Assembly (NCBI GenBank): GCA_019637755.1
Contig: JAHBVC010000002.1
Location: 293,342-357,341, forward strand
Reading direction: 5' to 3'
DNA from: Anaerolineales bacterium
GTDB lineage: Bacteria; Chloroflexota; Anaerolineae; Anaerolineales; UBA11579
Length of the DNA stretch: 64,000 bases
The notes beneath the pieces were generated by a model. That model saw nothing but the letters and a program-made list of their open reading frames with translations. It was not told the DNA's origin and ran no database searches. This document shows positions 27,291-53,470 of this stretch, in pieces. The stretch's first letter is position 1. Each line of letters opens with the position of its first letter. A program made the translations under genes and the position numbers.

Positions 27291-27617
27291 CTAACTTTCA
27301 GCGCTGGGGGCGACGATCTGCACGAGCAGCTTGCGCCGCTCCTGGTTGCCGTCTACCCAGGCATGGATCAGCACCACATAGCGCGCCCCGCCATCCGTGG
27401 CGAGGGCGCGCAGCTTTTTTAACGTGAGCACATTGCCGGTGACCACATGGCCATCCCCGGCGTCCATCGCCTCAGCGGTGATATCGACGCCATTGCGGTA
27501 GACCACGGCGGCCGGCGCACTGACGCTGGTAGCCCCCTGCCAATCGACGCTGTAAGCGATTTGCTCGCCGGCGATCATGCTGACCGGGCTGTCGATCAAC
27601 CAAACACTGTTTTCCAT
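27291..27617 (-). CDS. Hypothetical protein, last gene of the phage-like structural module
   Basis: AGGAGGGA SD precedes ATG 27617. 108 aa, beta-rich. Packed 7 nt from the upstream gene. Confidence 0.5.
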   Translation of the reverse strand: MENSVWLIDSPVSMIAGEQIAYSVDWQGATSVSAPAAVVYRNGVDITAEAMDAGDGHVVTGNVLTLKKLRALATDGGARYVVLIHAWVDGNQERRKLLVQIVAPSAES

Positions 27618-27626
27618 TCTTCCCTC

Positions 27627-28982
27627 CTAACGTAAGCGCACGGTGTGCAGCAAGGTCTTGCGGCGGCGAGCGCGCAGCTTGAGCCGCGTGTCTTGAATAC
27701 GCACCTGGGGCGTGGGCTGGGCGCTGCGCATTACTGCGCTCGGCACGGCAAAATAATCCACCACCAAGGCCGGGCGCAAGGCGGGGTTACTGTGGGCGGC
27801 CGCCGCCAGGCGCACGTACTCGGCGCCGTTAGCCGGCGGCGGGTTGGCGCCAGCGTCACGGCTGCTGCGCAGGCTGTAGTAGGCCATGCCGCCGGGCAGC
27901 AGGCCGCTCACATCCAGCGGCGCGCTGCTCAGCAGGCTGTTGGTCGCCACGCCGGCGGTATTGCGCCACAGCGCTGCCAGGCTGCCAGTCCGGCAGCCAT
28001 CGTAGGCCGCCTCGCGATTGCCATTGCTGAGCGGATCCTGCGCTGACCAATCCTGCGCTACGATCTGCACATCGAAATCAGACAGCGTCGAGGCATCCAC
28101 CACGCAGGCCAACCCCAAGGTGGCGGCGTAGATCTGCGCCATCGGGTTGAGCGAAGCCAGCGAGAACTTCACGAAGCCGCGATAGGCGTGATAGCGCGGC
28201 AGGCTGGCTTCATACGCCTGGCCGACGAAGAGATCCGCTCCGCCGGAGTCGTACAAGCTGGAGTTGAGCCGAGCGCCATCGTAGGTACTGTGCTGCCCGG
28301 CCACGAAGCCATCGCCCAGTGCCCCAAACGCGATCAGCGGATCGATCACTACCGGAAAACTGGCCGCAGCCAAATCCTCCAGCGCCAGGCCGGTGTAGTG
28401 CAGCTCGCCATCCTCAAAATGGTGCACGGCCAGCACGCGCCCGGCAGCATCCAGCGCGTGACCAGGGGTGAACTGCAAGCCCTGCGGCGTGCCCTGCCGC
28501 CGCGTGGCATACACCAGATAGCCCGCGCGGCTCTCCAGCGCGGGCATGGCAGCGATGCGCAATTCTTCCTTTACTCCGTTTTCCGTAAGCAGCAGCTCAT
28601 GGCAGAAGACGCCCTGCTCACGGCGCAGGCGCGTACCGGCGGCGCGTGCCACGGCGGGCAACTGCGCCAGCGCGGTGTAGCCTGCCTGCGCCCACACGCC
28701 CACACTGTAGGTGCGCTGCGCATAGCTGCCCACGCTCAGGCTGCCATCCGGCGCCAGGCGCACGGGCGAGCCCGCCGCGCCCCAGCGCGCCGCCGCATCG
28801 GGGCGCAGGTTAAGGTCATAGCTTTGCCAGCCGTGCGGGCCGCGGAAGTATTGCGGCGCGGTGGTGACCACCGCCCGGCGCAGGCCGCCGGCCAACGCAA
28901 AGTGCGTAGCGTGCGCACTGCGTTGGGTCACGCGGCCGGCCAGCTCAGGATTGTGCTCAAAAAACGTATCGATCCAAGTCAT
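27627..28982 (-). CDS. Hypothetical phage-like structural protein (451 aa)
   Basis: GGAGGGG SD precedes ATG 28982 (MTWIDTFFEHNPELAG..). Tightly packed in the structural operon. No family recognised. Confidence 0.5.
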   Translation of the reverse strand: MTWIDTFFEHNPELAGRVTQRSAHATHFALAGGLRRAVVTTAPQYFRGPHGWQSYDLNLRPDAAARWGAAGSPVRLAPDGSLSVGSYAQRTYSVGVWAQAGYTALAQLPAVARAAGTRLRREQGVFCHELLLTENGVKEELRIAAMPALESRAGYLVYATRRQGTPQGLQFTPGHALDAAGRVLAVHHFEDGELHYTGLALEDLAAASFPVVIDPLIAFGALGDGFVAGQHSTYDGARLNSSLYDSGGADLFVGQAYEASLPRYHAYRGFVKFSLASLNPMAQIYAATLGLACVVDASTLSDFDVQIVAQDWSAQDPLSNGNREAAYDGCRTGSLAALWRNTAGVATNSLLSSAPLDVSGLLPGGMAYYSLRSSRDAGANPPPANGAEYVRLAAAAHSNPALRPALVVDYFAVPSAVMRSAQPTPQVRIQDTRLKLRARRRKTLLHTVRLR

Positions 28983-28993
28983 CACCCCTCCTG

Positions 28994-29419
28994 CTACTCG
29001 CCCAGGTAGAGCACGCCTTCCGGGCTCCACTCCAGGTTGAAGTCTTCACCGCTGACCGTGTGGTCTGCGCCAAAGTTCATGTAGGCCAGCAGCGGGCTGG
29101 TGGCCGGGTTGCCGCTGTCTTTATAGAGCAGCGCCGCCCGTGCCGTGAAAGCGCCCACCGCCCACAGGGGGCTGTTCGCTTGCAACACGGCGCGGTCGTT
29201 GGCGTCATCCTGGGTGAGTACCACGCCGCTGAGCAGTTGGCCGCCGGCGCTGTAGCCGGTGCCCACCACCTCATGGCTGATATCAGCAAAGACTTGATGG
29301 CTATCTTTGTTGGCCACGTACTCCGCCGTCACCAGCGCCACGCGCAACGCATCCAGCAGCGGTTGCACCTCCCCCTTGAGCCAGGCCAGTTTGCCCGCGT
29401 TGTAGATAAAGCTGTACAT
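28994..29419 (-). CDS. Hypothetical phage-like structural protein (141 aa)
   Basis: GGAGGGGGAAG SD precedes ATG 29419 (MYSFIYNAGKLAWLKGEV..). Confidence 0.5.
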   Translation of the reverse strand: MYSFIYNAGKLAWLKGEVQPLLDALRVALVTAEYVANKDSHQVFADISHEVVGTGYSAGGQLLSGVVLTQDDANDRAVLQANSPLWAVGAFTARAALLYKDSGNPATSPLLAYMNFGADHTVSGEDFNLEWSPEGVLYLGE

Positions 29420-29445
29420 CTTCCCCCTCCGATCGTTTGATGGAA

Positions 29446-31998
29446 CTACCCTTCACGAATGCGCACCAGCGCCACGCCACCTTCGCCTTGCGGGGCACGC
29501 TGCAGGCTGGGCGCATCCACAATCACATAGCTGTCATCCAGCCCGGCCCACATGGCGCGCAGCCGTAGCCGCGTGGCGCTGCGCGCCGCTTGGCGCAGCC
29601 AGGCCAGGAAGGTTTGCGGGGCGGCATCCAGCCCTTCGCCGCCGTGCAGTTGCAGCGCATCCAGGCGCACCTGCAACTCCCACTGGTATTTTTGTGGCGT
29701 GCGCGCAAAGCCATCCAGCAGCGTCGCTTCCACGATGGCTGGGGTAGCGGCGCGCTGGCTGAGCAGGCGCAGGCGCGGGCGCAGCGCGAACAGCTCGCCC
29801 GTGTTCAGGGTCAGCCGGTCAACCGGCGAGGAGTAGAAGCTGCCCGCCTGGCGCCAGCTCGGCCCGCCGATCTCGGCGTCCAACTGGAAATCGAGTGCAA
29901 CCTGGGCGCCCTCCCCCAGGTTGCGGCTCACCAGGCTGAGCTGGGTGAGAAACTTGGGCAACAGCGTCGCTTCCATATCGATGCTGCTGCCCACCAGCAC
30001 ACCTTCGTGCTGGTAGCGCATGCCTGCATCCCCCAGCGGGTTCTCGCCTTCGGCCGGCAGCGGCAACCAGAGCAGATCGCCACCGCACTCCACCCACAGC
30101 CAGGCCGGCATCCCCGCCCCACCGGGTTGCAGCGCCAGGCTGCGTAGCGGGGCGGCCGGCCGCGGGGCACGCAGCAGCTCATGCCAGGCAGTGCCGTCCC
30201 ACACCAGCACGCTGGAATGGCCGCGGCCGGCGTCTTGCGCCACGGCCAGAGCATGCGCACCCAGCGGCAGCAGCGCGGCCAGTTGGCCGGCGCGGCCCGG
30301 CGGCAGGCCCTCACCCTGGCCGGGGCCGAAGCGCTTCAGCCCGCTGCCGCCAGTGGCGAGCAGTTGGCTGCCCCAGCCCAGCCAGAGCGCATCGTTCCAC
30401 ACCTGGGCGCTGGGCGTGATATGGCGCGGCAGCCGCGGCAGCCCGAGCGGTTGGCGCTGCACATGCTCGCTGCGCTCCAGTTGCCACAGGCTATCTGCCT
30501 TGAGGGTGCATAGCTGGCCGTTGAAATCAAACAAACGCAGCAAGGGCAAGCCGTCGCCCCCGAGTTGGATCGGCGTAGCAAAGCTGAGCGGGGTCAGCCA
30601 GGCGCTGGGCTGGGCGCGTGAGATCTGCGCGCTGGCAGCCAGCCCGCGCCACACTTGCGGGCCAAACTCCGCATGTTGAAAGATGTGCAACAGGTCGGCG
30701 GCGTTGCTGCCATCCGCATCGAACTCATGCGCCGGCGGCGTAGCCGCCGGGTTGAAGCGCATGCGCAGCAGCGGCAGGCTGGCACCCAGCGCCAACAAAG
30801 CCTGGCCGTTCATCACGGCGACATCGCTCACGCTACCATTCAGCGTATCGCCACTGCTGGGGCTGATGTCTTGCCAGTGCGGCGTGGCCGTGATGAGGTA
30901 CTGCGAGCTGGCATCCGGCAGGGCCTGCCACGCGGCGACCTGGAGCTGGGTGTCGTTATTGCCCACAATCTGGCGCAGTTGGCCCGCTCCCGCCCCGGCA
31001 TGGATGTACACCCATGCCCCCGCCCACTGATCGGCGGGCCAGAGTGCATTGGCATCGCTCAGGCTGGTGGCGCTGGCGCTGCTGGCCACGCCACGCGCCC
31101 CGTTGAGGTAGAGATGCGAGGGGCTGCCGTCAGCGCGCTGATCGGCAGCGTACAGCGCCCCATCCAACCAGAAGAACAGGAAGCGCCGGTCAAGATCGTT
31201 ATCCTCTATGCGGTAGTAGGCGCGAAAACTGGTGGCGTGCCACCCGCCATCGGCGGCGGCGCGCTGCCCGCCGGGGGCACGCCGCTCCACGCCAATCTCC
31301 CAATGGTTACTGGCGTTGTCGCTGGCCGCGCCACGCACGGCGAGGTGGTAGCTGCCAGCGCTCAACGGCGTGCTGTAGCCGGAGACATCAAAGCGCCGCC
31401 ACTGGCTGACCACATCGGTGATCTCAGTCACGGTCACCTGGCTGGCCGAGTTGGGCAACACCGCGCCGGGCTGCCCGGCAGCATCGGCGTGCAACTGCAC
31501 GCTGAGCTCGCCAGGCGAGCCCACCCGCCGCAGCCACACGCAGGCGTGCTTAGCGGCCAAGCCTTCGGCGCCCACGCTGAAGGCCGCCGCCAGGCTGCGC
31601 TGCTCGCCCAGCAAGGCCTGCCAACTGAGGTCCCCGGGCAGGCGCTGCACCGCGTGGCGCAGCCCTTGCGCATAGCTCCATTGTGGGGCGGCATGCACGC
31701 GGCCGGGGGTCAGCGTCCAGGCGTTTTGGCTATCGAAGAAATGGCGCGCCGTCTGAGTGCTGAAGCGCGCCACGCCGCGCCCGCCGCTCCAATCGCGTTG
31801 CTCGATCTGCGCCAGCCCCGGCTCCCAAGCGCCAAAGCCGCTGACCCAATTAAGCCGCAAGCCGGAGGGCGTCAGCAACGTTTCTTTGATGCCGGCCGCG
31901 CCGCCTTGCAGGTGCAGCCCCCAGGTGAGCACGCCATCGCTGAGGCTGAGTTCGTGGCTGGGATGGCTGGCGCCGGGATAGACCTGCAGCGCCGCCAT
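29446..31998 (-). CDS. Large phage-like structural protein (850 aa; in the position of a podovirus tail-tube/nozzle protein)
   Basis: ATG 31998 overlaps the upstream stop (TGATG). MAALQVYPGASHPSHELSLSDGVLTWGL.. The functional guess rests only on size and position. Confidence 0.5.
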   Translation of the reverse strand: MAALQVYPGASHPSHELSLSDGVLTWGLHLQGGAAGIKETLLTPSGLRLNWVSGFGAWEPGLAQIEQRDWSGGRGVARFSTQTARHFFDSQNAWTLTPGRVHAAPQWSYAQGLRHAVQRLPGDLSWQALLGEQRSLAAAFSVGAEGLAAKHACVWLRRVGSPGELSVQLHADAAGQPGAVLPNSASQVTVTEITDVVSQWRRFDVSGYSTPLSAGSYHLAVRGAASDNASNHWEIGVERRAPGGQRAAADGGWHATSFRAYYRIEDNDLDRRFLFFWLDGALYAADQRADGSPSHLYLNGARGVASSASATSLSDANALWPADQWAGAWVYIHAGAGAGQLRQIVGNNDTQLQVAAWQALPDASSQYLITATPHWQDISPSSGDTLNGSVSDVAVMNGQALLALGASLPLLRMRFNPAATPPAHEFDADGSNAADLLHIFQHAEFGPQVWRGLAASAQISRAQPSAWLTPLSFATPIQLGGDGLPLLRLFDFNGQLCTLKADSLWQLERSEHVQRQPLGLPRLPRHITPSAQVWNDALWLGWGSQLLATGGSGLKRFGPGQGEGLPPGRAGQLAALLPLGAHALAVAQDAGRGHSSVLVWDGTAWHELLRAPRPAAPLRSLALQPGGAGMPAWLWVECGGDLLWLPLPAEGENPLGDAGMRYQHEGVLVGSSIDMEATLLPKFLTQLSLVSRNLGEGAQVALDFQLDAEIGGPSWRQAGSFYSSPVDRLTLNTGELFALRPRLRLLSQRAATPAIVEATLLDGFARTPQKYQWELQVRLDALQLHGGEGLDAAPQTFLAWLRQAARSATRLRLRAMWAGLDDSYVIVDAPSLQRAPQGEGGVALVRIREG

Positions 31999-32819
31999 CA
32001 GAAGCTCCGCGCGCTGAGCAGGCGCGCCCCGCGCCGCGGGCGCCAGATGGGAAAGCGCCGCTGGGCCGCCTGCAACTCCTCGGCGGCCGCCTGCCACAAC
32101 GCGGCCAATTGGCCATCGCCGCCTTTGCGCACGCTATACCAGCGCAGGGCGCGCTCCACCACTGCCGCCACCGCCAGCTCCGGCTGAATGGCGGCGGAGA
32201 GTGTATCGCCTGCGGCCGCCAGGCGCGGGTGCGTGGCCGGATACCAAACGCGCAGCGGCCGCCCTGGCGGCAACGCGTCGGCAAAGCGCACGGTGCCGGG
32301 GGCGCCGGGCGGGGCGGGCACAAAATCCCAATCATGCAGCGTACGCCACGGGTCGCCGGCGCTCACCCCGGCAACGGCCAGGCAGTCGATGCGCAGCGGG
32401 CGGCGGTGCGCCCACTCCAGGGTGTGGGCGTGCGGAGCCACGGCGTATTCATCCACCAGCGGGATCTCGCCCAGGCCGCGCAGGGCGCTATTGGCCAGCT
32501 CCAGCATGGTGGCCAGCGGATACTGCGCCGAGGCTAGCGCGTAGGCCATGCCCGCCTCCACCGGCTCGCTGAGGCTGGGCGCCAGGGCCAGCGTGCCCGT
32601 GCTGGCGGCGAAGCCCGCCACGCGGGCGAATTCGCCCGCCGGCGGCGCCCCGCCCGCGGCGAGGAAGACACTGCCGCCCTTCCAGTCATCCTCGCTGTGC
32701 TGGCCGGCCAGCTCCGCATCGGTCAGGCTGCTGGCGCTGCCGCCGCTGGCCTGGCCGCGGCGCAACTGGCCGAGCTCGGTGTAGGCGTCTTGAAGCAACT
32801 CACTCAACGTGTATGACAT
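31998..32819 (-). CDS. Phage-like structural protein (273 aa; in the position of a head-tail adaptor or tail-tube A protein)
   Basis: AAGGGGGA SD precedes ATG 32819 (MSYTLSELLQDAYTELGQL..). It is the first gene after the capsid gene and its hairpins. Confidence 0.5.
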   Translation of the reverse strand: MSYTLSELLQDAYTELGQLRRGQASGGSASSLTDAELAGQHSEDDWKGGSVFLAAGGAPPAGEFARVAGFAASTGTLALAPSLSEPVEAGMAYALASAQYPLATMLELANSALRGLGEIPLVDEYAVAPHAHTLEWAHRRPLRIDCLAVAGVSAGDPWRTLHDWDFVPAPPGAPGTVRFADALPPGRPLRVWYPATHPRLAAAGDTLSAAIQPELAVAAVVERALRWYSVRKGGDGQLAALWQAAAEELQAAQRRFPIWRPRRGARLLSARSF

Positions 32820-32876
32820 ACATCCCCCTTGGTCTGCTGCGCGCTTAAATGACGCAGCCTGCGGCGTTAACAGTCG

Positions 32877-32950
32877 GGGCCCAGGCTCCCCCTCGCCTGG
32901 GCCCACCGCGCCGGGTGCGCGCCGGTGTGCTGGCGCAGGTCTGCGCCAGC
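32877..32950 (-). terminator. Two GC-rich hairpins immediately downstream of the capsid gene (partial terminator or RNA-stability element)
   Basis: gctggcgcaggtctgcgccagc (32929-32950) and gggcccaggctccccctcgcctgggccc (32877-32904). No clear U-run. Confidence 0.45.
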
Positions 32951-32967
32951 GCACCTCCTGATATCGT

Positions 32968-34098
32968 CTAGCTAGTAATGCCAAAGATCTTGCCGTGGGC
33001 CTTGTTGTTGGCCACCAGCAAGCTCAATTCGCCTACCACCTCGCCCTTCAGACTGTCGCCAGAGCGCGCCAGCTCCTTGGCCTCAAAGCCGCGCAGCGTG
33101 TAGAAGCCCACCTTGCCGCTCTCCAGAATGTAGGCGGTGTGCACCGGGCACCAGCGATTCATCACCAGCTCCAGTTCACCGTACTGCGTCACCACGCGCT
33201 CGATCGCATCCAGGCCCAGCTTGTGCTCGCCCTGGCCGACGCGTACGAAGCTGCTATTGTCGAGCAGATTGCGCAAATCATTCGCCACGCGCGGATTCAT
33301 CACCAGCAGATCGGGGTTGCCGCCATCCATCACGATCTCTTCCATCAGCGCGTCCACATCCGCCTTGGCGATCGCCCCGCCAGCATCCACGCTGTTGTTG
33401 GTGATGAAGCTACCCAGGCCGCCCATCGAGCGCGGCGTGCTGGCCGAACCAGCCGCCCGCACCCCGTGGAAGGCGGCGCCTTCCACCAGGCGCAGCAAGT
33501 GCGGCACGGCCTTATTGGCTTGGTACTGGAATTCATCCTCAATGCCGTGCTGGCTGATCGCCTGCTGGGTGCCGCTCACCTGCACTGCCTTCTGAAAAAT
33601 GCTGGTGTAGTTGAACGGTACACTGAGCGCGGTCAGCGGGCCGTAGTCGGCATCGTCACCCTCGAGGCGCGCCATGGCGCAAATCGTGATCGCGGCGGTC
33701 GCCGCGTGGGTAGCATTCGTGCCACCGTAGGCACGGCTATATACCGTCACGTTGTTGGTGCCCAGATCAACACTCTTGACCACCATGTACTCGGCGTCGA
33801 TCAGGATGACGTGGCCATCCTGAAACACCGAGGCGTCGGCCACCACGAAGCTGGTATCCGCCGCGCCGATCGTCTCGCCGTTGTTGGCGGCGGTCACCAG
33901 CGGGTCCAGCTCATCTTCGAGCAGCTCCACCTTATGGCCGTTCATGCGGATCTTGAACTTGTCGCGGGCGCTATCCAACCCCAGGCGCGCCAGCAACGGC
34001 GTATCGCGCGGGTCCACCATCTGCACCACATCGCTGATCACCCGCGCCTGGGCCGCCGTATCCGCATAGGTTGTTTTCATGCCATCGTAAATTGCCAT
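32968..34098 (-). CDS. Major capsid protein, HK97-fold (DUF5309 / SU10-type family)
   Basis: 376 aa. The N-terminal block ARVISDVVQMVDPRDTPLLARLG...HKVELLEDEL follows the xDLxDxIxxIxPxDTPFxSxxG...HEWxxDxL pattern of this capsid family. AGGGGGA SD. It sits right after a scaffold-like gene. Confidence 0.7.
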   Translation of the reverse strand: MAIYDGMKTTYADTAAQARVISDVVQMVDPRDTPLLARLGLDSARDKFKIRMNGHKVELLEDELDPLVTAANNGETIGAADTSFVVADASVFQDGHVILIDAEYMVVKSVDLGTNNVTVYSRAYGGTNATHAATAAITICAMARLEGDDADYGPLTALSVPFNYTSIFQKAVQVSGTQQAISQHGIEDEFQYQANKAVPHLLRLVEGAAFHGVRAAGSASTPRSMGGLGSFITNNSVDAGGAIAKADVDALMEEIVMDGGNPDLLVMNPRVANDLRNLLDNSSFVRVGQGEHKLGLDAIERVVTQYGELELVMNRWCPVHTAYILESGKVGFYTLRGFEAKELARSGDSLKGEVVGELSLLVANNKAHGKIFGITS

Positions 34099-34197
34099 AC
34101 AAAATCCCCCTATTCGCTGTTAGCTCTTAGCCGTAAGCTAAGAGTTCAAATCTCTGCCTTCTATTTACCAATTGCTATTTGCCATTTTTTATTCTTT

Positions 34198-34247
34198 ATC
34201 CCTCATCCCTCATCCTTCATCCTTCATCCTTGCCTTCCATCCTTGCT
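34198..34247. repeat. GGATGA-rich short repeat block inside an AT-rich spacer between the scaffold and capsid genes
   Basis: atccctcatccctcatccttcatccttcatccttgccttccatccttgc belongs to the same motif family as 12032-12065 and 12493-12562. The adjacent hairpin ctcttagc-cgtaa-gctaagag lies at about 34124-34144. Confidence 0.6.
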
Positions 34248-34712
34248 TTAGTACACCTCCAGTCCGCGCTGGCGAAATTCGCGCTTAAGCTCCACCACCG
34301 CCGCTAGGTTGCCCGGCCGCAAGGCGGCCATGCGCCGGCGGTACTCGGCGGGCAGATCGGCGGGCGGCGCCCCGCCGCCGCCCGGCGGGATCGCCAGGCT
34401 GGCACGCCCCTGCGGCGCGCCCCAGCGCGCCAGGCGTTGCAGCGCGTCGGCCGCCGTGGCCACCAGCGCCTGCACATCCGGCTCGGTGGCTTCATCCAGC
34501 GCCGCGCGCCGCGGCGCGGCAGGCGCCGCAGTCGTTGCCAGGCGCTGCTCCAATTCGCCCAGCAGCGCCTGCTTGAACTCTTCGCCCAGTTGCGCCTTCA
34601 CCAGATCCGCAATGCGTTGCTGCTTCTTACTCCCTCCCAATGCCGTGGCCGCCGGCGCGGCGCGCCCCTCGAAACCATCGGCCTGGGAACCCTCCAGTTG
34701 CTCTACGTGCAT
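34248..34712 (-). CDS. Scaffolding-like protein (154 aa, Ala/Glu/Arg-rich, helical)
   Basis: AGGAGGTG SD precedes ATG 34712 (MHVEQLEGSQADGFEG..KKQQRIADLVKAQLGEEFKQALLGELEQRL..). The call rests on position directly upstream of the capsid gene and on composition. Confidence 0.4.
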   Translation of the reverse strand: MHVEQLEGSQADGFEGRAAPAATALGGSKKQQRIADLVKAQLGEEFKQALLGELEQRLATTAAPAAPRRAALDEATEPDVQALVATAADALQRLARWGAPQGRASLAIPPGGGGAPPADLPAEYRRRMAALRPGNLAAVVELKREFRQRGLEVY

Positions 34713-34865: not shown

Positions 34866-34994
34866 ATGGCAAACAAGCCCGCCAGCAAGACCAAAAAACC
34901 GAGCCCGAAGCCCAAGCTACCCAAGGCCAAGGCGAAGCCTGTAACCAAGGGCCCTACTGACAGCTTAGCGGCGCGGGCGGCGCGCCTGATATGA
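34866..34994 (+). CDS. Possible 42-aa Lys/Pro-rich micro-protein coupled to the next gene
   Basis: MANKPASKTKKPSPKPKLPKAKAKPVTKGPTDSLAARAARLI. Its TGA overlaps the ATG of 34991 (ATGA). Below the ORF-track cutoff. Confidence 0.3.
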   Translation: MANKPASKTKKPSPKPKLPKAKAKPVTKGPTDSLAARAARLI

Positions 34995-35755
34995 GCCCGT
35001 TCATCACCGCCATCCTCATTCACCTGGCCACCGCCGGCCTGTTTGCCTTCGTCGGCTGGCGCCTACGCCACCGCCAGCACGCCGATGCGCTGGATCAGCG
35101 CGCCTGGCGCGCCTTCCTGTGCTGGTGGTTTGGCATGGGCCTCAACGCCGCGCTGATGGGCCTTTCAATGCTGTTACGCGCCAGCGGCCTGAGCGCCCTG
35201 TGGTTCTTCGTAGCCCTCAATCTGCTCGGCACGCTGGCTGCCGGGGTGGCGCTATGGGGGCTGATCAGCTATCTCCTGTATGTGTTCCGCGGCGATTGGC
35301 GCCACAGCCGCTGGGTGGCCGCGTTCTACATTGCCTTTGGCCTATACCTGCTCTACACCGTGGTTGCCTTCGTGCCCACCGCTGCCACGCTCACCACCTG
35401 GCAAGTGCTCATCGAATATCAGCGCACGCCCAGGCCGCTCTACCCCGTGGGCCTGCTGCTGCTCTTCGGCCTGCCGCCGATCCTGGCCAGCCTGGCGTTC
35501 CTGCGCATCTTCTTTAGCCTGCGCGAGCGCAGCGCCCGCTACCGCGCCGTACTGGTTACCCTCGGTATTTTCCTGCAGTTTGCCGTGCCCTTCATCATGC
35601 CGATCATTCTCTACCTGTTCGGCATCCTCACCCCCAAACTCCCCTGGTGGCCGCTCACCTACCGCCTGGTCGGCCTGCTCGGCCTGCTCCTGCTCTACTT
35701 CGCCTATTCTCCGCCACGTTTCGTACAAGACTGGTTGCGCGTCAATCCGCTATAG
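34991..35755 (+). CDS. Multi-pass membrane protein, paralog 1
   Basis: 254 aa, about 7 helices. Shares AWRAFLCWWFGMGLN, LWGLISYLLYVFRG, LPPILASLAFLRIFFSLRERSARYRA and WWPL..RL.GL with the next gene. Confidence 0.6.
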   Translation: MSPFITAILIHLATAGLFAFVGWRLRHRQHADALDQRAWRAFLCWWFGMGLNAALMGLSMLLRASGLSALWFFVALNLLGTLAAGVALWGLISYLLYVFRGDWRHSRWVAAFYIAFGLYLLYTVVAFVPTAATLTTWQVLIEYQRTPRPLYPVGLLLLFGLPPILASLAFLRIFFSLRERSARYRAVLVTLGIFLQFAVPFIMPIILYLFGILTPKLPWWPLTYRLVGLLGLLLLYFAYSPPRFVQDWLRVNPL

Positions 35756-35826
35756 CGGCTCCTAAAAATCCACCCACATACGTTGCACCACCAGACCTAT
35801 GCTGGGCTTACCCTCTGGTATCCCGA

Positions 35827-36603
35827 ATGAACCTCCCCGCCCTCACTATCTTCTTCGCTAACTGCGCGCTGTATTTCTTCATCGGCCATTCGCTGCGCCA
35901 AAAACGGCTGGCCGATGCCGAAGATGCGCGCGGCTGGCGCGCATTCCTGTTCTGGTGGTATGGCATGGCTGCTAACACCGGGCTGAATGGTTTGGCCGTA
36001 CTTGCCATGGGCCTGGGCATTAGCTGGCTGCCGCTGTTAGTAGCGCTGAATGCGCTGGCCGCCCTGGCCGCCGCGCCGGCCCTTTGGGGTCTGCTCAGCT
36101 ACTTGCTGTACATCTTCCGCGGCAACCACACCGCTTCGCGCTGGCTAGGCCGCTTCTATGTGCTCTTCGGCATTTTCCTGCTGGTGTCCATTTACCTCTT
36201 ACATCCTGTCGGCGCCAGCATGGGCACCTGGGAGATGACGCTGCAATACGCCAACGTGCCCAGCGGGCTCTTCGGCCTGCTCTATGGCGTGTTACTGATC
36301 CTACTCTTGAGCCTGCCGCCGATCCTGGCCAGTATTGGCATGTTCACTTTGTTCTTCCGCGTACGTGAGCGCAGCGCGCGGTTCCGTGCCTTGCTGGTGC
36401 CGCTGGGCTTCTTCCTGCTCTTCGGCTTGGCCTACTTCATCCCGCTGATTCTGCTGCTCCTCGGCACCAACCTCAATACAGTCACCTGGTGGCCGCTAGC
36501 CATCCGCCTGATCGGCCTGGCGGCGCTGGTGCTAATTTACATTGCCTATTTCCCGCCACGCGCTGTACAACGCCTGCTACGCGTGCACTCAATATTGGTC
36601 TAA
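35827..36603 (+). CDS. Multi-pass membrane protein, paralog 2
   Basis: ATG 35827 (MNLPALTIFFANCALYFF..). It aligns along its whole length with 34991-35755. Confidence 0.6.
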   Translation: MNLPALTIFFANCALYFFIGHSLRQKRLADAEDARGWRAFLFWWYGMAANTGLNGLAVLAMGLGISWLPLLVALNALAALAAAPALWGLLSYLLYIFRGNHTASRWLGRFYVLFGIFLLVSIYLLHPVGASMGTWEMTLQYANVPSGLFGLLYGVLLILLLSLPPILASIGMFTLFFRVRERSARFRALLVPLGFFLLFGLAYFIPLILLLLGTNLNTVTWWPLAIRLIGLAALVLIYIAYFPPRAVQRLLRVHSILV

Positions 36604-40782: not shown

Positions 40783-40920
40783 TTTTTCTCTTTCTCCTTA
40801 TTATTGTTAAACAAAAAAACTGTACCTGGGGTTCCGCAGCCGTGGCCACGACTTCGCCCGTACAGTTTCGCTACTTGGCTCCCCCATAGCAGCTGGGACA
40901 GGACAGTCTCCATCCACCGT

Positions 40921-40955
40921 CATTTTGCATATTTTATTAGGTTGCAAGCAAAATG
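40921..40955. promoter_or_regulatory. AT-rich inverted repeat in the potD / nnrS-like divergent region (candidate operator)
   Basis: cattttgc-N19-gcaaaatg, with an internal TTGCA-N7-TGCAA. Confidence 0.35.
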
Positions 40956-40990
40956 CAATGCTCAAAGCTTAAAGAATTGGCAGCGGCCAC

Positions 40991-41022
40991 CCCCGGCGGG
41001 CCAGCACCCCGGCGGGCCAGCA
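40991..41022 (+). repeat. Tandem 16-bp repeat (2 copies plus a partial)
   Basis: ccccggcgggccagca ccccggcgggccagca cccc. Confidence 0.8.
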
Positions 41023-41061
41023 CCCCACCTGCCCCGCCCAGGCAGTAGTACACTCCCTTTG

Positions 41062-42138
41062 ATGAAGATCCCCTATTTCAAGTTTCGCCTGCCGATCCTG
41101 CTGGTGTGCGTTGCCCTGCTGGTACTGGCCGTGCTGGCCGGCTTGGCGCGCATCGGCTGGGCGCTGCCCAGCCTGCCGCGCCAACTACCCATCGCCCACG
41201 GCCCGCTGATGGTTTGCGGCTTCTTTGGTACCCTCATCGCCCTGGAGCGCGCCGTGGCGCTCAACCGCCGCTGGATGTACCTCGGCCCAGCCGCCAGTGC
41301 CCTTGGCGGCCTGCTGCTGGTGGCCGGCCACAGCCTGCCCGGCGCGTTGTTGATCGTGCTGGCCAGCCTCAGCTTTAGCCTGGTGGGCTGGCTGATCGTG
41401 CGCCAGGCGCCGGCCAACTACACCCGCGTGATGGCGATCGGCGCCACCAGTTGGCTGGTGGGCAACCTGCTGTGGCTATTTGGCCTGCCGCTCTCGCTGG
41501 TGGTGCACTGGTGGGCGGCCTTCCTGGTGCTCACCATCGCCGGCGAACGCCTGGAGCTGGGGCGCTTGCTGCGCCCCAGCCAAAACGCCCAGCGCGCCTT
41601 TCTGGCCGCCACCGCGGCGGTCTTGCTGGGCGCCGCGCTGGTAGCGTTCAACTTCTTGTGGGGTGCGCGCCTCTATAACCTGGGCATCCTGGCACTCAGC
41701 CTGTGGTTCCTGCGTTATGACGTCGTGCGCGTCACCCTGCGCACACGCGGCCTGCCGCGCTACATTGCCTGGGCGCTCTGCCTGGGCTATATCTGGCTGG
41801 GCGTCAGTGCGGTGCTCGGCTTCCTCAACGGGCCGCAGGTAGCCGGCCTGCTCTACGATGCCTACTGGCACGGCATGTTCGTGGGCTTCGTACTCTCGAT
41901 GGTGTTTGCCCACGGGCCGATCATCCTGCCCGCCATTCTAGGCCGCACCGCGGTCTACCATCCCATCCTGTACGCGCCGCTGGCGCTGCTGCATAGTTCG
42001 CTGATCGTGCGCATCATTGGCAATCTGCTGCTCGATCCGCTGATCCGCCGCTGGGGCGGCCTGCTGAATGGCTTTGCGATTCTGTTGTTCTTTATTTCGA
42101 TGGCGATCTCCTTCCGGCGTAACCGCTCCGGCCAATAA
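41062..42138 (+). CDS. Multi-pass membrane protein, NnrS-like by size, topology and context
   Basis: ATG 41062 (MKIPYFKFRLPILLVCVALL..). About 12 helices with conserved-looking His residues (HWWAAF, YWHGMF, FAHGPI). It converges with nirK. The family assignment is tentative. Confidence 0.4.
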   Translation: MKIPYFKFRLPILLVCVALLVLAVLAGLARIGWALPSLPRQLPIAHGPLMVCGFFGTLIALERAVALNRRWMYLGPAASALGGLLLVAGHSLPGALLIVLASLSFSLVGWLIVRQAPANYTRVMAIGATSWLVGNLLWLFGLPLSLVVHWWAAFLVLTIAGERLELGRLLRPSQNAQRAFLAATAAVLLGAALVAFNFLWGARLYNLGILALSLWFLRYDVVRVTLRTRGLPRYIAWALCLGYIWLGVSAVLGFLNGPQVAGLLYDAYWHGMFVGFVLSMVFAHGPIILPAILGRTAVYHPILYAPLALLHSSLIVRIIGNLLLDPLIRRWGGLLNGFAILLFFISMAISFRRNRSGQ

Positions 42139-44289: not shown

Positions 44290-46011
44290 CTACTTCGTAT
44301 TGGCGCCGGCTACCGCATCCGGATTGGCCATCACCGGCGGCAAGCCGCCGGCCGCCGGGTCAAATCCGCGCCGGCTGGCGCTCGCCGGCGGTTCCGCGGG
44401 GCCATCCAGCTCGGCCAGCAGGCGGCGCTTGCGCAGCTCCAGTTGCGCCGCGGCCAATTGCTCCTGCTCGGCCTGCGCCATCACCTCCTTGGCATCCGTC
44501 TCGCCGATCTGCTCCAGCGCCCGCTCGCGGCTGTAGCCCAGATCGCGTACTGCCATGCTGGCGGCGTTGATGCGCGCCATGCGGTCAGTGGGCACATCGG
44601 CGGTCAGCTCCACATCGATCAGCACCTGGCTCAGATCCAGCTTGCGCGGATCCAACGTGATCGTCTCACTGCGTCCGCGCTGGCTGATGTGCGCCTCCAG
44701 CGGCTGCTGGCTGTGCTGCACCCAATTGAGCATCAGTTGGAACACCTCGGCCAACGCATCCTGGGCCAATTCCTTGTAGGGCGTCAGACTCTTGATGCCG
44801 CTCTGCGTCGCCAGGTTGAGCGTGGCGAACGCCGCCCCCAGCGGGAAATCAGCAGTTTGCAGCACGCGTGGCACGGTGCTCTTGCCCATGCGCTCCGCCA
44901 CGCGCTCGGCGATGCGTGCCAAGCTCTCATCCAGCCCCGGGGCGGCCAGCGGGTTGAGCTGGTGCCCCGGCGGCACGTGCACGATGCGGCCGGGTTCGCC
45001 GTAATCCACATCCACCTCGGCACTGGGGCCTTCTACCTTCAGCCGCGGCGCGGCGGCATAGGCGATGACTTCAGAAGCCAGTAAGGTCTCCACGATGTTT
45101 TGGGTATCCCACTGGCGCGATTGGTAGATGCTGGCCAGCAAAGGGATACGCTGGTGGCTGCCGCGATGCAGCGTGGTGCCGCCCACCTTGGCGGCCCAGG
45201 GCAAGAAACCCAGCCCGTGCTCCTCCTGCAGGATCAGCCGCGCCCCCGCCTCCGGCGTGCCACCCGGGTCGGCCAGGGCGCTGGCATCGCTTTGCGGCAC
45301 TGCCCACACGGTGCGCTGCTGCGTATCCATGTAGTCGTATACGCTCACATGCGTGAACGCCGCGCTCTTGCGCAACGGCCCGCCGCGGCCTGCCGGGCGG
45401 GCTTGCTTGAGCTGGCTGGCCAGGGCCTGCCCCCAGAAGGCCAGCGCTTCCTCCAGTGGCATCAGTTGCTTGAGCAGCACGGCCTCGGGCATCCAGTCGG
45501 AGTAGCGCACGTGCACATCCTGCGGGTTGCGCACGATGATGGCAAACGGCCCAAAACGCTGCGCCGCCGCGTGTGGCGCGCCGGCGCCCAACCATTGCGC
45601 CGCCTGCTGCTGCGCCGGCAGGTAGACCACCTGCGCCACTACCTCATCGTACAGCAGGGCACTCAGCACCACATCGCGCAGCACGCTAGCCCGCCGCCGG
45701 CGGCTGGCATTGCGGAAGTGCCAGGCCAGGGCGCGCTCAATGCGCTCGGCCTGGCTGCGGGCGCTGCGCCCGCCCAGCGGCTGCACGGTGATGCGCGGCG
45801 CCACCGAGCTGAGTACGCGTGTGCCCGCCCGCACCGCGTCGTGCGGATCGGTGCTGACCACTTTGTGCACCCAGCCCACCGCCTGCAGCGGCGGCGGTAG
45901 TTGCCAGCGGTTGTGCCACATGGCGTCCATGGCGCGCAGCATTTCATCGCGCTCGCGGTCGGCGGCGATCATGTGTGAAGCGACAGTTTGAAAGTAGGCT
46001 AGCTCTTGCAT
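44290..46011 (-). CDS. Portal-like protein (573 aa), solitary
   Basis: AGGGGGA SD as in the capsid module. Size, the acidic/helical C-terminal tail (..AQAEQEQLAAAQLELRKRRLLAELDG..) and overall composition are compatible with a podovirus-type portal. I could not anchor a diagnostic motif by eye. Confidence 0.4.
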   Translation of the reverse strand: MQELAYFQTVASHMIAADRERDEMLRAMDAMWHNRWQLPPPLQAVGWVHKVVSTDPHDAVRAGTRVLSSVAPRITVQPLGGRSARSQAERIERALAWHFRNASRRRRASVLRDVVLSALLYDEVVAQVVYLPAQQQAAQWLGAGAPHAAAQRFGPFAIIVRNPQDVHVRYSDWMPEAVLLKQLMPLEEALAFWGQALASQLKQARPAGRGGPLRKSAAFTHVSVYDYMDTQQRTVWAVPQSDASALADPGGTPEAGARLILQEEHGLGFLPWAAKVGGTTLHRGSHQRIPLLASIYQSRQWDTQNIVETLLASEVIAYAAAPRLKVEGPSAEVDVDYGEPGRIVHVPPGHQLNPLAAPGLDESLARIAERVAERMGKSTVPRVLQTADFPLGAAFATLNLATQSGIKSLTPYKELAQDALAEVFQLMLNWVQHSQQPLEAHISQRGRSETITLDPRKLDLSQVLIDVELTADVPTDRMARINAASMAVRDLGYSRERALEQIGETDAKEVMAQAEQEQLAAAQLELRKRRLLAELDGPAEPPASASRRGFDPAAGGLPPVMANPDAVAGANTK

Positions 46012-46878: not shown

Positions 46879-46930
46879 AGCGGGAGTCTCCTTGGCAAAA
46901 TTATAAACTGGCCCATATTTTCTGCGGCGC

Positions 46931-48607: not shown

Positions 48608-48985
48608 ATGGAGACGCTGGAATTCCCGGCTTGGTTGGAGCAAAAATACATTGAGTGGCAAAGTGCGCGCGGCAAGCGTGCTACCCTGGCCCAGTTTGCT
48701 GACCATCTAGGCCTCTCGGCGCCGCTGCTCAGCCACTACCTCAACGGCATTCGCAAGCCCACTCGCGAAAACACCCGCAAGCTCGCCCAGCGCTTAGGCC
48801 CAGAAGTTTACGATATACTGGGCCTTCAGCATCCTGACCCTAAGCTGCGTTTTATCACGCGCAACTGGAGCCAGTTGACAGCTGAACAACAGCAACAGCT
48901 TCTGGCCGCGGCCGAGAAGCTGCTGAAGGCGGGAAATGAAGAATCAGCCTCACGTACAGGTCGGCCTAAGAAAACTGACAGATAG
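48608..48985 (+). CDS. XRE/Cro-type helix-turn-helix protein
   Basis: ATG 48608. ..KRATLAQFADHLGLSAPLLSHYLNGIRKPTRENTRKLAQRLG is an HTH. The C-terminus is helical and basic. Confidence 0.65.
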   Translation: METLEFPAWLEQKYIEWQSARGKRATLAQFADHLGLSAPLLSHYLNGIRKPTRENTRKLAQRLGPEVYDILGLQHPDPKLRFITRNWSQLTAEQQQQLLAAAEKLLKAGNEESASRTGRPKKTDR

Positions 48986-49095
48986 CTGGGATGCGTTATC
49001 GCTGGCCCGGCGCTGGCAGCTATTCACCCTCACGCTGCTCTTCCTGACAAAGAATTGGCTCACCACCAACCGCAAAACAGAGTAGTTGCGCGCCC

Positions 49096-50952: not shown

Positions 50953-51023
50953 AAAAGTCTTCCCATTAAAAAGACCCTGCACGGGGCAGGGCCTTGTAAG
51001 AAGGAGATTATAGCAGATGAAAT

Positions 51024-51938
51024 TCAGGGTTGCGGGCAGAGAAAGTACGGATCGATGGCATCGCCCCCTTCAGACATCCAGCCGGTTTGGCCGCTTTCAT
51101 CGCGCACCTGCCACCACGACCAGTCGTCGGCGCAAATTGGGCCATACATAACCTCCAGCGTGCTGCCGGGGGCATAGCGGCCGATGCGATCGGCTGAGCG
51201 GCTGGGCGAACTGCGCATGAACACGCTATCGCGCAGGGTGCATACCTGGGCATGCGCCCCCACGACTAAGCGCTGTGCGGGGGCTCCCGCGCAGCTCAAA
51301 TCTACAAAGCCGGCGCGTCCCATGCCGTTTTCGGGAGCCGTTATCGCGGAAGAGGTTACCTGGCTACATGCGATCAAATCATTGCCGCGCGATGGCGTGT
51401 TGTACACGCCGATCAATTCCCATTCCCCGCTCTCGCCATCGAAGACCAGCCCGGTACTGCTCGACTCCCAGGGTTCATCGAGGACGTAGCACCCGCTGAT
51501 ATCGCAATAGTCTGTTTGCACCCAGGCCGGGTTCCACCCCTCCACCCACACCAGCATCCACGGCATGGACGGCACAAACATATAGCCCTGGCACGCCGCG
51601 CCGTTGCCTACGCGTTGTTGCAAGGCTTCATAGAATTCCTGGCGGGTAACGATGGTATTGCCCTCACCCTCAAAGCGAGAGTAGAAGACATTCTCGGCCT
51701 GCACCATGTCTCGCAGGATGTCTGGCCGGTTATTCTGCAGCGCAAAATCGATGGCGCGGATGATTTCGTACGCATCACCGTGATCGTAGTCAGTTGCGGT
51801 TTCCCTGAGCGGCTCCTGGCTGGGTTGAAGCGCCTGCAGCGTAGGCGCCTGCACGCGCCCCGCTTGTGACACCGTTTTGCAAGCTACGGCGATCAACGCC
51901 GCCAGGATCAAGAGACCAATGCGCACCTTTGCCATCAT
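51024..51938 (-). CDS. Lipoprotein with C-terminal SH3b-like domain
   Basis: Signal/lipobox [13 protein letters not shown]-terminus ..[60 protein letters not shown]. Confidence 0.5.
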
Positions 51939-52030
51939 GTACCCCAAGCACTTGACATATTGCCCCAACTTTTACTGGAAAGATAAAAAGTCGTTATATC
52001 AGAAAAAAACTATTCACTACAGGGGGCTTT

Positions 52031-53470
52031 ATGGCAATCGATCTGCAGGATCACGCCGAAGATTTTGCGCGCTTTTATGAAATGCTCTACCAACGCCCAC
52101 TGCCGGCCCACGCGCGGCGCGATTGGGTCAAGCCGCTGTACGCCGCCCGCGCCGCCGGCAAAGGCCTGGTGGTCACCGCCTTCCGCGGCTCAGGCAAAAC
52201 CACCGCGCTCAGCATTGCCTTCAGCGCCTTTCGCATTGGGTTGCAGCCCAGCCAAAGCCACTTGCTGGTGCAAGCCAGCGATGCCATCGCGCACGACACC
52301 AGTGCCCAGATCGCCGAGCTGATCGCGCACAACCCCGGCTGGCAGGCGGCCTTCCCGCACCTGGTGCCAGACCGCAAAGTGAGCTGGGGCGCCGAAGGCT
52401 ACGAGCTCAACAATACGCACTACGACTATGCCGCATGGCGGGCGCGCTGTGCTCGCGACAAAGGCAAAGACCCCACACTGGTGGGCCTGGGTTACAAATC
52501 ACGCGCCATCATCGGCAAGCACCCTACCGGCTTGCTGTTGGTAGACGACATCCACGATGAGACCAATACGCGCTCGGTGCGCGAGCTGGACACAGTGGTG
52601 AAGATCCTCACCGGCACGATCCTGCCCACCGCCACGCCAGAGACCTGGCTGCTGGTGGTGGGCACGCCCTGGCAGGAGAACGATGCCCTGGCCTATCTGG
52701 CCGCCACCGGGCGCTTCAAAAGCGCCAGCACGCCGATCCTGCGCGGCCAGACCCCGCAATGGCCCAGCAAGTTTCCCAAAGCCGCCATCCGCAAGCTGCG
52801 CAAACTCAGCGGAGAGGCGGAGTTTGCACGCATGTACCTGCTGGATCTGGAAGCGGCCCAAGGCCTGCACCTCAAGCCGGAATGGCTGCTGCCCTACCCG
52901 CACGAAAAGATCAACCCGCGCTGGCCGGTGGTGATGGGGGTGGACTATGCCAGTACCGCGGATGAGCTGATTGGTCGGCGGCGCGATTATTTCGCCGTGG
53001 CCATCGGCCGCGTGCTGCCCGGCGGCGGCATCGTGCTGGTGGATGGCTTCCGCGCCCAAGTCAGCCAGGGCGAAGCCGAGCAGCAACTGCGCGCCCTGGC
53101 GGCGCAATATCCCTCGACCCAGATGATCGGCGTAGAGGCGGTGGGCAAAGGAGAGGAGTTCTATCACCTCATGCTGCGCACTTCCAGCCTGCCACTGCTG
53201 CCGCTGCACCCCGGCGGCAAAAGCAAGGGCCGCCGCTTCGAGGCGGGCATGGCGCCGCTGTTCCAAAATGGCCGCGCCCGCATTGCTAATGTAGAAACAC
53301 CGTTTCTGCGTGCGTTTCGGGATGAGTGGCTGCGCTGGCCCAACGGCGAGCATGACGATACGCTCGACGCGGTGGCCTGGATGCTGCACGTCGGCCGCAG
53401 CCACATTCCGCCGCGCCCGCCGCGCCCGGCTGCGCACGCCAACCCGTTTCGCAGCCTGGGGCGCGGCTAA
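52031..53470 (+). CDS. Phage terminase large-subunit-like protein, solitary
   Basis: Walker A FRGSGKTT, Walker B LLLVDDIHDE, coupling motif VVGTPW. C-terminal RNaseH-like nuclease residues VVMGVDYAS.. and EHDDTLDAVAWML. Confidence 0.7.
   Translation: MAIDLQDHAEDFARFYEMLYQRPLPAHARRDWVKPLYAARAAGKGLVVTAFRGSGKTTALSIAFSAFRIGLQPSQSHLLVQASDAIAHDTSAQIAELIAHNPGWQAAFPHLVPDRKVSWGAEGYELNNTHYDYAAWRARCARDKGKDPTLVGLGYKSRAIIGKHPTGLLLVDDIHDETNTRSVRELDTVVKILTGTILPTATPETWLLVVGTPWQENDALAYLAATGRFKSASTPILRGQTPQWPSKFPKAAIRKLRKLSGEAEFARMYLLDLEAAQGLHLKPEWLLPYPHEKINPRWPVVMGVDYASTADELIGRRRDYFAVAIGRVLPGGGIVLVDGFRAQVSQGEAEQQLRALAAQYPSTQMIGVEAVGKGEEFYHLMLRTSSLPLLPLHPGGKSKGRRFEAGMAPLFQNGRARIANVETPFLRAFRDEWLRWPNGEHDDTLDAVAWMLHVGRSHIPPRPPRPAAHANPFRSLGRG

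Follow-up and report, generated by a model that had tools for sequence, protein, structure and literature searches.

Gene transfer agents (GTAs) and related viriforms, such as the RcGTA-type Rhodogtaviriformidae, BaGTA and VSH-1, are produced from head, tail and packaging genes of caudoviricete origin that reside in a bacterial chromosome, are inherited vertically under purifying selection and are unaccompanied by replication or integration genes. The genetically defined GTAs are long-tailed, and RcGTA is encoded by a head-tail cluster together with distant loci. RcGTA lacks full phage ejection functions and relies on competence genes of the recipient. Besides the genomic features, the definition of a GTA requires that the particles contain cellular DNA and no more than a part of their own coding genes, and that production is under host control in a small subpopulation; a handful of origins have a known genetic basis, with two alphaproteobacterial types and a spirochaete type (Kogay et al. 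2022, PMC9662315). Here, a stretch of 64,000 nt (the window) from an Anaerolineales bacterium (UBA11579; assembly GCA_019637755.1, contig JAHBVC010000002.1, positions 293,342-357,341, forward strand) is analysed, in which genes for a podovirus-type particle occupy three separate chromosomal loci: a head-and-tail block (locus i), a portal gene (locus ii) and a large terminase (TerL) gene (locus iii).

These loci are probably the surviving, selected parts of an ancient podovirus-type prophage, retained as a GTA-like viriform that would package cellular DNA. Genes for a tailed-phage particle (major capsid protein (MCP), TerL, portal, nozzle and syntenic tail genes) lie in a cellular genome, and no replication, integration or lysogeny module was found in Pfam, PHROG and NCBIfam scans of open reading frames (ORFs) from 9-64 kb of the window, called by length and third-position GC content (GC3). 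On this sequence evidence, the system appears to be phage-derived, vertically transmitted and free of replication and integration functions, the genomic attributes by which GTAs and viriforms are recognised (PMC9662315). It does not belong to any described GTA family. Unlike the known GTAs, which it resembles in the shared properties listed above but as a system known from genes alone, it has an independent origin, an SU10-type capsid protein and a short-tailed architecture with podovirus adaptor and nozzle, without tape measure or tail tube, and its host phylum is Chloroflexota. The RcGTA-type set of HK97-type g5 capsid, tape measure and long non-contractile tail was not found; SU10_MCP, adaptor and nozzle stand in its place. 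Furthermore, the core of head, portal and terminase genes is itself split, and differently in each lineage. A preliminary description of this DNA had proposed a GTA-like layout; domestication is supported, whereas the resemblance to RcGTA does not extend to the tail.

The gene map combines an ORF list with a gene call guided by GC3. All phage-like ORFs are uninterrupted, eleven of them intact in the window, and cellular genes separate locus (i) from (ii) by 9.6 kb and (ii) from (iii) by 6 kb, so that the three loci together span 27 kb. The same three loci, with a capsid gene of DUF5309 type, a portal-like ORF and a TerL-like ORF, had been named in the preliminary description, and each of these assignments holds on the evidence that follows. 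The TerL gene has profile matches (Table 1), and 14 aligned homologues are invariant in its Walker A (RGSGKTT), Walker B (LLLVDDIHDE) and coupling (GTPW) motifs, as well as in the acidic nuclease residues D305, E369 and HDDTLDA. The MCP scores 211 bits against SU10_MCP (PF17236), for which the Pfam cut-off is 24.1.

The portal ORF has no Pfam or PHROG match. When PDB sequences were searched with profiles built from the portal, adaptor and nozzle alignments, nothing was returned, and folds had to be compared instead. An AlphaFold (AF2) model of the portal, built from a 25-sequence alignment with a mean predicted local distance difference test score (pLDDT) of 69, was compared with the PDB by Foldseek, and all 50 of the 50 best matches were phage portals, led by Pan3 (2e-11) and SU10 (2e-10) and followed by N4, lambda, SPP1 and P22. 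The protein is also 34% identical, over 88% of its length, to the product of the gene directly after TerL in the podovirus MW202608. By predicted fold and synteny together, the ORF is identified as the portal gene. An exact look-up of the window portal and of the closest MCP cluster returned no record. The TTGACA element and Shine-Dalgarno (SD) sequence of the portal gene are conserved in relatives.

Directly upstream of the MCP gene lies a gene assigned, by position, as a putative scaffolding-protein gene. It starts at an ATG at 34712 preceded by GGAGG, and no Pfam, PHROG or NCBIfam profile matches its product; the C-terminal ~36-50 aa are conserved with the gene at the same position in nine chromosomal loci. 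Loci extracted around the phage-like genes in genomes or metagenomic contigs of relatives are numbered here (L002-L043), and the scaffold homologue of L032 matches the same-position gene of the phage contig L042.

Downstream of the MCP gene, the block encodes a podovirus tail. In T7-like phages, the adaptor gene sits between those for MCP and nozzle. The 273-aa protein at this position is most likely the adaptor, and it has a syntenic homologue in phage MW202608 (35% identity) and in all chromosomal clusters. The 850-aa protein is, by its predicted fold, the tail nozzle: Foldseek ranks a ~910-residue tail chain from the SU10 virion (7z4b_DW, 1e-10) first for its model, followed by the T7 gp12 nozzle (9jyz_P, 7boy), Kp7, HRP29 and P22 gp10. 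With an MCP above the gathering score, and portal and nozzle folds whose best structural matches are SU10, Pan3, N4 and T7, the set points to an ancestor among podoviruses of the SU10_MCP type. SU10 (Kuravirus) and T7-like virions (7z44, 7z4b, 9jyz) share the MCP Pfam family and provide the best structural matches of portal and nozzle, but sequence identity in the structural alignments is 7-13%, and there is no sign of a prolate head or of the SU10 fibre set.

Among the remaining genes of the block, the 141-aa gene keeps its position in L014, L032, L035, L040 and L041. The 467-aa protein, a putative tail fibre or receptor-binding protein, is the most divergent member of the set (63-66% identical in close relatives, 24-33% in distant ones), and in L032 its slot is occupied by a Laminin_G_3 protein; the fibre-type pattern of conserved N-terminus and variable C-terminus was looked for and rejected, as divergence is even along the length. 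The 108-aa protein has a homologue in MW202608 (39%) and closes every chromosomal tail block. Profile searches (Pfam, PHROG, NCBIfam) with the scaffold, adaptor, 141-, 467- and 108-aa and small proteins gave only phrog_644 and a sub-threshold DNRLRE match. Two small membrane-protein genes beyond the 108-aa gene (26359-26767) probably belong to the set. In L035, L040 and L041, the 108-aa gene is directly followed by a homologue (69-82% identity) of the ~68-aa protein, which may be holin-like, and the 83-94 aa family to which the second belongs occurs after the tail block in L014, L032, L035, L036, L040 and L041, in L032 after a GH25 lysozyme gene with one ORF between. In the window, L040 and L041, the small membrane genes are followed by a GNAT gene and a 146-aa gene. 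The 146-aa family, in its C-terminal part, has a match (32-48%) encoded downstream of the cluster in the distant L032/L033; it is a possible further component.

Homologues of the system are widespread among Anaerolineae. At 90% identity, portal homologues form 198 clusters and MCP homologues 548, whose named sources are Anaerolineales, Anaerolineae or Chloroflexi metagenome-assembled genomes (MAGs) with contigs up to 4.4 Mb. Portal identity falls smoothly from 99% to ~45%, and the 120 MCP clusters listed are 67-94% identical, with lengths of 376-378 aa in nearly every case. When one genome per species was scanned with two short peptide patterns, at least 30 loci were found, in MAGs or closed genomes of Anaerolineae. 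None of the carriers has been cultured, and their taxonomic labels are those of the deposited MAGs.

Six relatives with ~79% portal identity, including the closed chromosome CP075367.1, share the portal context of the window: typA, HTH (in four of the six), PAS, rhomboid, portal, GNAT, nirK, a 444-aa gene, potDBCA and membrane genes. In the three loci that extend far enough, L002, L005 and L006, TerL lies beside typA. RHS/YD-shell genes occupy 6.5 kb between the MCP gene and the adaptor gene in the closed chromosome CP075526.1 (L041), and in the L002/L040 genome, where the loci span ~45 kb with host genes interleaved, as they are in the window, a gene for a 3114-aa RHS protein lies upstream of the adaptor gene, the MCP-adaptor split being read from locus content. 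Because the portal context recurs in six independent relatives, one of them a closed chromosome, and because the MCP/tail block is split further in another closed chromosome, an assembly artefact is excluded as the explanation of the split loci. The preliminary description had set assembly error, relaxed selection and confinement of homologues to contiguous, inducible prophages against its own proposal: recurrence in closed genomes rules out the first, dN/dS values well below 1 with dS matching host neighbours (see below) speak against the second, and the shared context in six relatives and RHS-broken blocks in two dispose of the third.

With greater distance, the arrangement changes. At 63-66% portal identity, the portal gene adjoins scaffold-MCP (L007) or lies one membrane gene away (L010). 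L014 (55-60%) is nearly contiguous, with TerL, portal, rpsU, scaffold, MCP, adaptor, nozzle and 141-, 485- and 108-aa genes within 13.5 kb. TerL is adjacent to the portal gene in L017 and L022, and at other loci a gap of 1-6 kb between them is filled by GGDEF, LRR/Roc-COR, MFS or other cellular genes. Thus, in distant genomes the break points differ and are filled by cellular genes.

Some chromosomal genes nevertheless anchor the system: rpsU widely, PolX and the pot operon in closer relatives, and cobA in one distant genome. The tail block of L035 is flanked by the pot operon and by rpsU-PolX; in L041, potA stands upstream of the MCP gene, with PolX-rpsU downstream of the tail block. In L014, L024, L032 and L036, rpsU is a neighbour of the scaffold gene or of the portal gene. 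A cobA gene (65% identical) and an alpha/beta hydrolase gene stand on the TerL side in both the window and L014. In the loci checked, rpsU, encoding ribosomal protein S21, is linked to the cluster, and it lies antisense between portal and scaffold genes in distant genomes. Some phages encode S21. The linkage may mark the ancestral insertion site, or rpsU may be a phage-borne S21 gene.

Selection and timing were estimated for the window against relatives by the Nei-Gojobori method, as the ratio of nonsynonymous to synonymous divergence (dN/dS) and as synonymous divergence (dS) (Table 1). All components have dN/dS of 0.07-0.30, apart from the portal, whose ratio is 0.27-0.35 in comparisons with L007, L009 and L010, more distant loci at which dS plateaus. 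Every component therefore appears, from these ratios, to be under purifying selection of a strength typical of ordinary non-housekeeping host genes. The dS of portal and TerL (0.66-0.85) is the same as that of typA and the pot genes (0.60-0.96), which suggests that the phage-like genes have been diverging for as long as the neighbouring host genes. Correspondingly, pairwise identities of portal and MCP across 15 genomes are correlated (Spearman 0.81, Pearson 0.91), although the two genes are often unlinked, and neighbour-joining (NJ) trees of both proteins group the chromosomal Anaerolineae copies in a single clade that excludes the phage contigs L042 and L043. Flanking genes, dS, portal-MCP co-divergence and monophyly all indicate vertical transmission, with NJ trees as the phylogenetic basis.

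Table 1. Features of the window and of relatives' loci, with approximate dN/dS of the window gene against relatives (TM, transmembrane; pTM, predicted template modelling score).
Feature	Positions	Strand	Length, matches, remarks	dN/dS
Locus (i)	27291-34712	-	scaffold candidate, MCP, adaptor candidate, nozzle, three further ORFs	
Scaffolding-protein candidate	34248-34712	-	154 aa	
MCP	32968-34098	-	376 aa; Pfam SU10_MCP/DUF5309 (PF17236) E 3.4e-62; phrog_1328 6e-53	0.07-0.15 (relatives with dS >1); 0.09 against L041; 0.23 against L010
Head-to-tail adaptor candidate	31998-32819	-	273 aa; true start is M56 of the long ORF	0.19-0.26
Tail nozzle	29446-31998	-	850 aa; AF2 model pLDDT 87, pTM 0.81	0.16-0.26
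Conserved virion-module protein	28994-29419	-	131-141 aa; phrog_644 E 2e-29, family without assigned function	0.08-0.17
Tail fibre / receptor-binding candidate	27627-29030	-	450-467 aa; fast-evolving	0.20-0.29
Conserved virion-module protein	27291-27617	-	108 aa	0.12-0.18
Small membrane protein, holin-like candidate	26561-26767	-	~68 aa; N-terminal TM helix and coiled coil	0.10-0.15
Small hydrophobic protein	26359-26511	-	50 aa; in-frame shortened member of 83-94 aa family	
Locus (ii), portal	44290-46011	-	573 aa	0.16-0.19, dS 0.72-0.85 (close relatives)
Locus (iii), TerL	52031-53470	+	479 aa; phrog_38 E 2.7e-57; Terminase_6C E 8e-5	0.19-0.22, dS 0.66-0.68 (close relatives)
typA (host)				0.05-0.09, dS 0.68-0.92
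pot genes (host)				0.03-0.09, dS 0.60-0.96
nirK (host)				0.12-0.14
444-aa gene (host)	40804-42138			0.19-0.33
GNAT and 146-aa protein	25306-25746, 25743-26300	-, -		
Hairpins and leader	32820-32967		between MCP stop and adaptor start	
rpsU	~21651-21887	-		
PolX	22009-23736	+		
Six-TM membrane-protein tandem pair	34991-36603		adjoins scaffold gene	
Second membrane-protein tandem pair	53310-55562		Lys/Ala-rich C-terminal tails; 81-nt repeat at 54195-54275 and 55497-55577	
Two larger PAS/GAF-GGDEF genes	56549-60220		3 kb beyond TerL	
Low-GC island	2970-8248		41-50% GC	
Abi_2 abortive-infection protein	2970-4082	-	in low-GC island	
Rep_trans rolling-circle initiator	5826-6722	+	in low-GC island	
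Tyrosine integrase	6993-8153	+	in low-GC island	
tRNA-Arg(TCG)	8175-8248		adjoined by low-GC island	
rpsU in relatives	L014 12331-12534; L024 6579-6758; L032 8810-9013; L036 8748-8951			
RHS cassettes in relatives	L041 3356-9052; L040 1-9007; L034 11249-12726		TEN_YD-shell, SpvB, Laminin_G_3, M23, DUF6973; toxin-like	
TM-GGDEF genes in relatives	L018 8316-9956; L020 355-1089; L025 2122-2850; L027 1757-2491; L031 9187-9957		~245-aa family	
Prim-Pol/D5-type primase-helicase gene	L013 12243-14486		beside portal	
Shortened MCP gene	L009 12604-13044		ends after ~147 residues	

The genes around and between the loci are those of an ordinary chromosome. By Pfam, the stretch between loci (i) and (ii) holds a potA/B/C/D-like ABC transporter, a multicopper nirK-like oxidase and a GNAT protein, besides two paralogous membrane proteins and the 444-aa protein, and that between (ii) and (iii) holds rhomboid, GT87, PAS, HTH_3, TypA/BipA and an SH3-domain lipoprotein. 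The preliminary description had listed the same cellular genes, but its NnrS-like label for the 444-aa protein finds no Pfam or NCBIfam match. It had also noted host-like composition, strong GGAGG/GGGGGA SD sequences and the lack of att-like repeats and of an adjoining integrase. Codon usage of the phage-like genes is ameliorated (GC3 0.77-0.84, against 0.64-0.84 for cellular genes between or beside the loci), SD sites of the GGAGG/GGGGGA type are present, and no att-like direct repeats flank the loci. No integrase stands at the loci, yet one lies in a separate, unrelated island of the window. Sigma-70-like elements and SD sites occur upstream of each locus. A search for a regulatory motif shared upstream of the loci found conservation only of TTGACA-like elements, of SD sites and of a leader with hairpins that precedes the adaptor gene. 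In the window, the MCP stop is followed by two GC-rich hairpins and then by a leader that, as far as the adaptor start, is conserved in L040 and L041; in the latter two, with RHS genes upstream of the adaptor gene, a TTGACA element precedes this leader.

The closest phages are temperate podoviruses. L042, L043 and MW202608 (Caudoviricetes sp., Manatee Spring) have the same order of TerL, portal, scaffold, MCP, adaptor, nozzle and 108-aa genes, but in contiguous genomes of 33-42 kb with 50-56% GC and 33-55% identity to the window. In addition, they carry a replisome organiser (MW202608), an integrase (L042), an endolysin, a decoration protein and, after the portal, a 1874-2156-aa internal protein. 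The portals of L042 and L043 are 47-49% identical to that of the window at full length (52-55% in the tblastn segment) and their MCPs 33-55%; both contigs have many small ORFs, 50-52% GC and the contiguous order TerL, portal, 380-aa, 1874-2097-aa protein, scaffold, MCP, and L042 has an HTH gene with its integrase. MW202608 is a complete 41.8-kb genome with the order TerL-portal ... scaffold-MCP ... adaptor-nozzle ... 108-aa gene. IMG/VR yielded only three portal relatives (34-43% identity), in all of which TerL abuts the portal gene, and no MCP match above 34% identity came from the 50,697 deposited phage genomes. An identity threshold separating the chromosomal clade from phages was considered and rejected, as portal relatives (50%-identity representatives) run from 51% to 30% without a gap; because there is no clean gap, clade and phages are separated by context and trees. 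In L029, from a Planctomycetota MAG (VRUF01000013.1), a phage-like element has an MCP 59% but a portal 34% identical to those of the window, which suggests mosaic exchange of head genes among related phages.

Under the proposed model, one temperate podovirus would have been captured once and fixed in the ancestor of a large clade of uncultured Anaerolineae. Autonomous functions would then have been lost and the remaining genes would have descended vertically as ordinary chromosomal genes, with selection keeping those for particle formation and DNA packaging. Insertions and rearrangements of cellular genes would have pulled them apart in a lineage-specific manner, scattering being tolerated because the gene products act in trans. 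Under host control, procapsids would be built from scaffold, MCP and portal and filled with DNA by TerL, whose ATPase and nuclease motifs are intact; adaptor, nozzle and three small or variable tail proteins would close the particle and give it a short tail, and the holin-like small membrane proteins may help release.

Several observations weigh against this model. The window yielded no small terminase (TerS), endolysin or ejection protein, whereas GH25 and M23 genes are present in L032. The set as seen may be incomplete, or other parts of the genome may hold what is missing; TerS, lysis enzyme and regulators in particular may be located outside the 64-kb window. Related phages have genomes of 33-42 kb and the loci span 27 kb, so that, with a capsid of ancestral size, a single headful might accommodate every gene of the set in this genome. 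The dS values are near saturation and depressed by GC3 bias, which makes the dN/dS values approximate, and the NJ trees are without bootstrap. Finally, disrupted copies occur: among evaluable loci, portal is intact in 30 of 32, TerL in 14 of 17 and MCP in nine of ten, with MCP truncated in L009, TerL split in L014, L027 and L031, and portal split in L028. These are either real losses or MAG errors. The shortened MCP gene of L009 (MAG TGS_CHL7) is intact in the relative TGS_CHL2 (L010) and looks like loss of the system in one lineage.

As to the missing terminase subunit, a 139-aa family upstream of TerL in L013, L014, L024 and L030, and elsewhere in L018, is a positional TerS candidate; it has no PHROG match and no homologue in the window or in the loci of close relatives. 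Replication and integration modules are missing from the clusters of the clade. Neither a decoration protein, nor lysogeny-control genes, nor a LysM/M23 protein such as that retained in L032 was seen in the window, and the giant internal protein is absent from chromosomal copies wherever the stretch from portal to scaffold could be read.

The main competing explanation is that the particle is domesticated but serves another purpose, as a PBSX-like killer that packages host DNA without delivering it productively, or as a device for DNA release in biofilms or filaments. This is unlikely, though it deserves serious consideration, as the genomic evidence for domestication applies to it equally. 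Loss of the giant internal protein could mean loss of productive injection, the LysM/M23-type protein is absent from the window and kept in L032, and in some relatives RHS toxin cassettes lie inside the cluster. Conversely, the adaptor, nozzle and fibre-like protein are under purifying selection, which argues for continued attachment to cells, and the limited ejection functions of RcGTA show that such loss is compatible with transfer. PBSX-type defective prophages and phage-like bacteriocins are likewise chromosomal, non-replicating and phage-derived and may package host DNA, but PBSX is contiguous, myovirus-like, repressor-controlled and confined to close relatives, whereas the genes here are scattered, podovirus-like and conserved across a deep clade.

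The absence of TerS, endolysin and ejection genes nearby, together with the truncated or split copies in a few relatives, would also fit slow decay of an inactive, defective prophage. Such decay is highly improbable: the ORFs of the window are all intact, the genes remain intact in most of ~40 loci despite 55-70% identity, MCP length is almost constant in the 120 clusters listed, TerL catalytic motifs are invariant, dN/dS is 0.07-0.30, and neutral drift over dS >0.7 would have destroyed the frames. Equally hard to sustain is the view that a common temperate phage family inserted recently and independently at one hot spot, or that the element is still mobile. A related temperate phage with an integrase exists (L042), and a Prim-Pol/D5 gene lies beside the portal gene in L013; but the loci have neither integrase nor att repeats and are interleaved with cellular genes, their dS equals that of flanking host genes, the chromosomal copies are monophyletic to the exclusion of phage contigs, portal and MCP co-diverge though unlinked, and codon usage is ameliorated where phage contigs have 50-58% GC. 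Likewise, an intact or inducible prophage does not match what was found, with loci separated, no att repeats and no regulatory, replication or lysis modules adjacent, and neither does a capsid-forming phage-inducible chromosomal island or other satellite, as tail genes are present, no integrase stands at the loci and the set is not compact. It is also very improbable that the structural genes are retained because they are exploited by a satellite or integrative island to transfer itself. The window does hold an integrative island, with Rep_trans and integrase at tRNA-Arg, that could in principle use host-encoded capsids. Nothing links this low-GC island to the phage-like genes, however, it was not seen around these genes in relatives' loci, and selection by a parasite fails to explain clade-wide vertical retention.

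Other features of the window and of relatives' loci may be recorded. The low-GC island, whose integrase and Rep are the only ones in the window, is a small integrative element unrelated to the podovirus-like genes and lies 19 kb from the nearest of them. The six-TM pair beside the scaffold gene also neighbours the cluster in L003-L006, L010, L026 and L041, and a second tandem membrane-protein pair and two GGDEF genes lie on the TerL side (Table 1). In one subclade, a TM-GGDEF diguanylate cyclase gene (family members 39-68% identical) lies antisense immediately upstream of the portal gene, and between TerL and portal where TerL is in view; its product could be a cyclic di-GMP regulator of the system. 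The Prim-Pol/D5-type gene of L013, found in one distant MAG, is either a relic of the ancestral phage's replication module or part of another mobile element. RHS cassettes, of which the window has none, lie directly upstream of the adaptor gene in L040, with MCP outside the locus, and directly after MCP in L034, where the contig ends.

More specifically, the system may tentatively be regarded as an independently exapted GTA, ancestral to a broad Anaerolineae clade; it would be the first GTA of Chloroflexota and also the first whose genetically defined architecture is that of a podovirus. Head, portal, terminase and tail genes would work in trans from loci that are drifting apart, and particles would depend on recipient functions for DNA uptake because phage ejection proteins have been lost. 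The literature searched on GTAs, on capsid, portal or terminase genes in Anaerolineae/Chloroflexota and on DUF5309 contains no description of such a system, in agreement with the preliminary description, which knew of none with this gene set.

If the proposed model is correct, these loci, which virus-prediction tools could call prophages, are a practical warning. They would add a further GTA origin in a phylum that is abundant in wastewater, sediment, soil and marine systems and largely uncultured, extend the phylogenetic reach of phage domestication and show that a short-tailed virion can be domesticated. Arranged from nearly contiguous clusters to four or more dispersed loci, the relatives would provide a natural series in which a prophage dissolves into the genome of its host while remaining functional. 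The system would also bear on gene flow in communities where Anaerolineae are key filament-formers.

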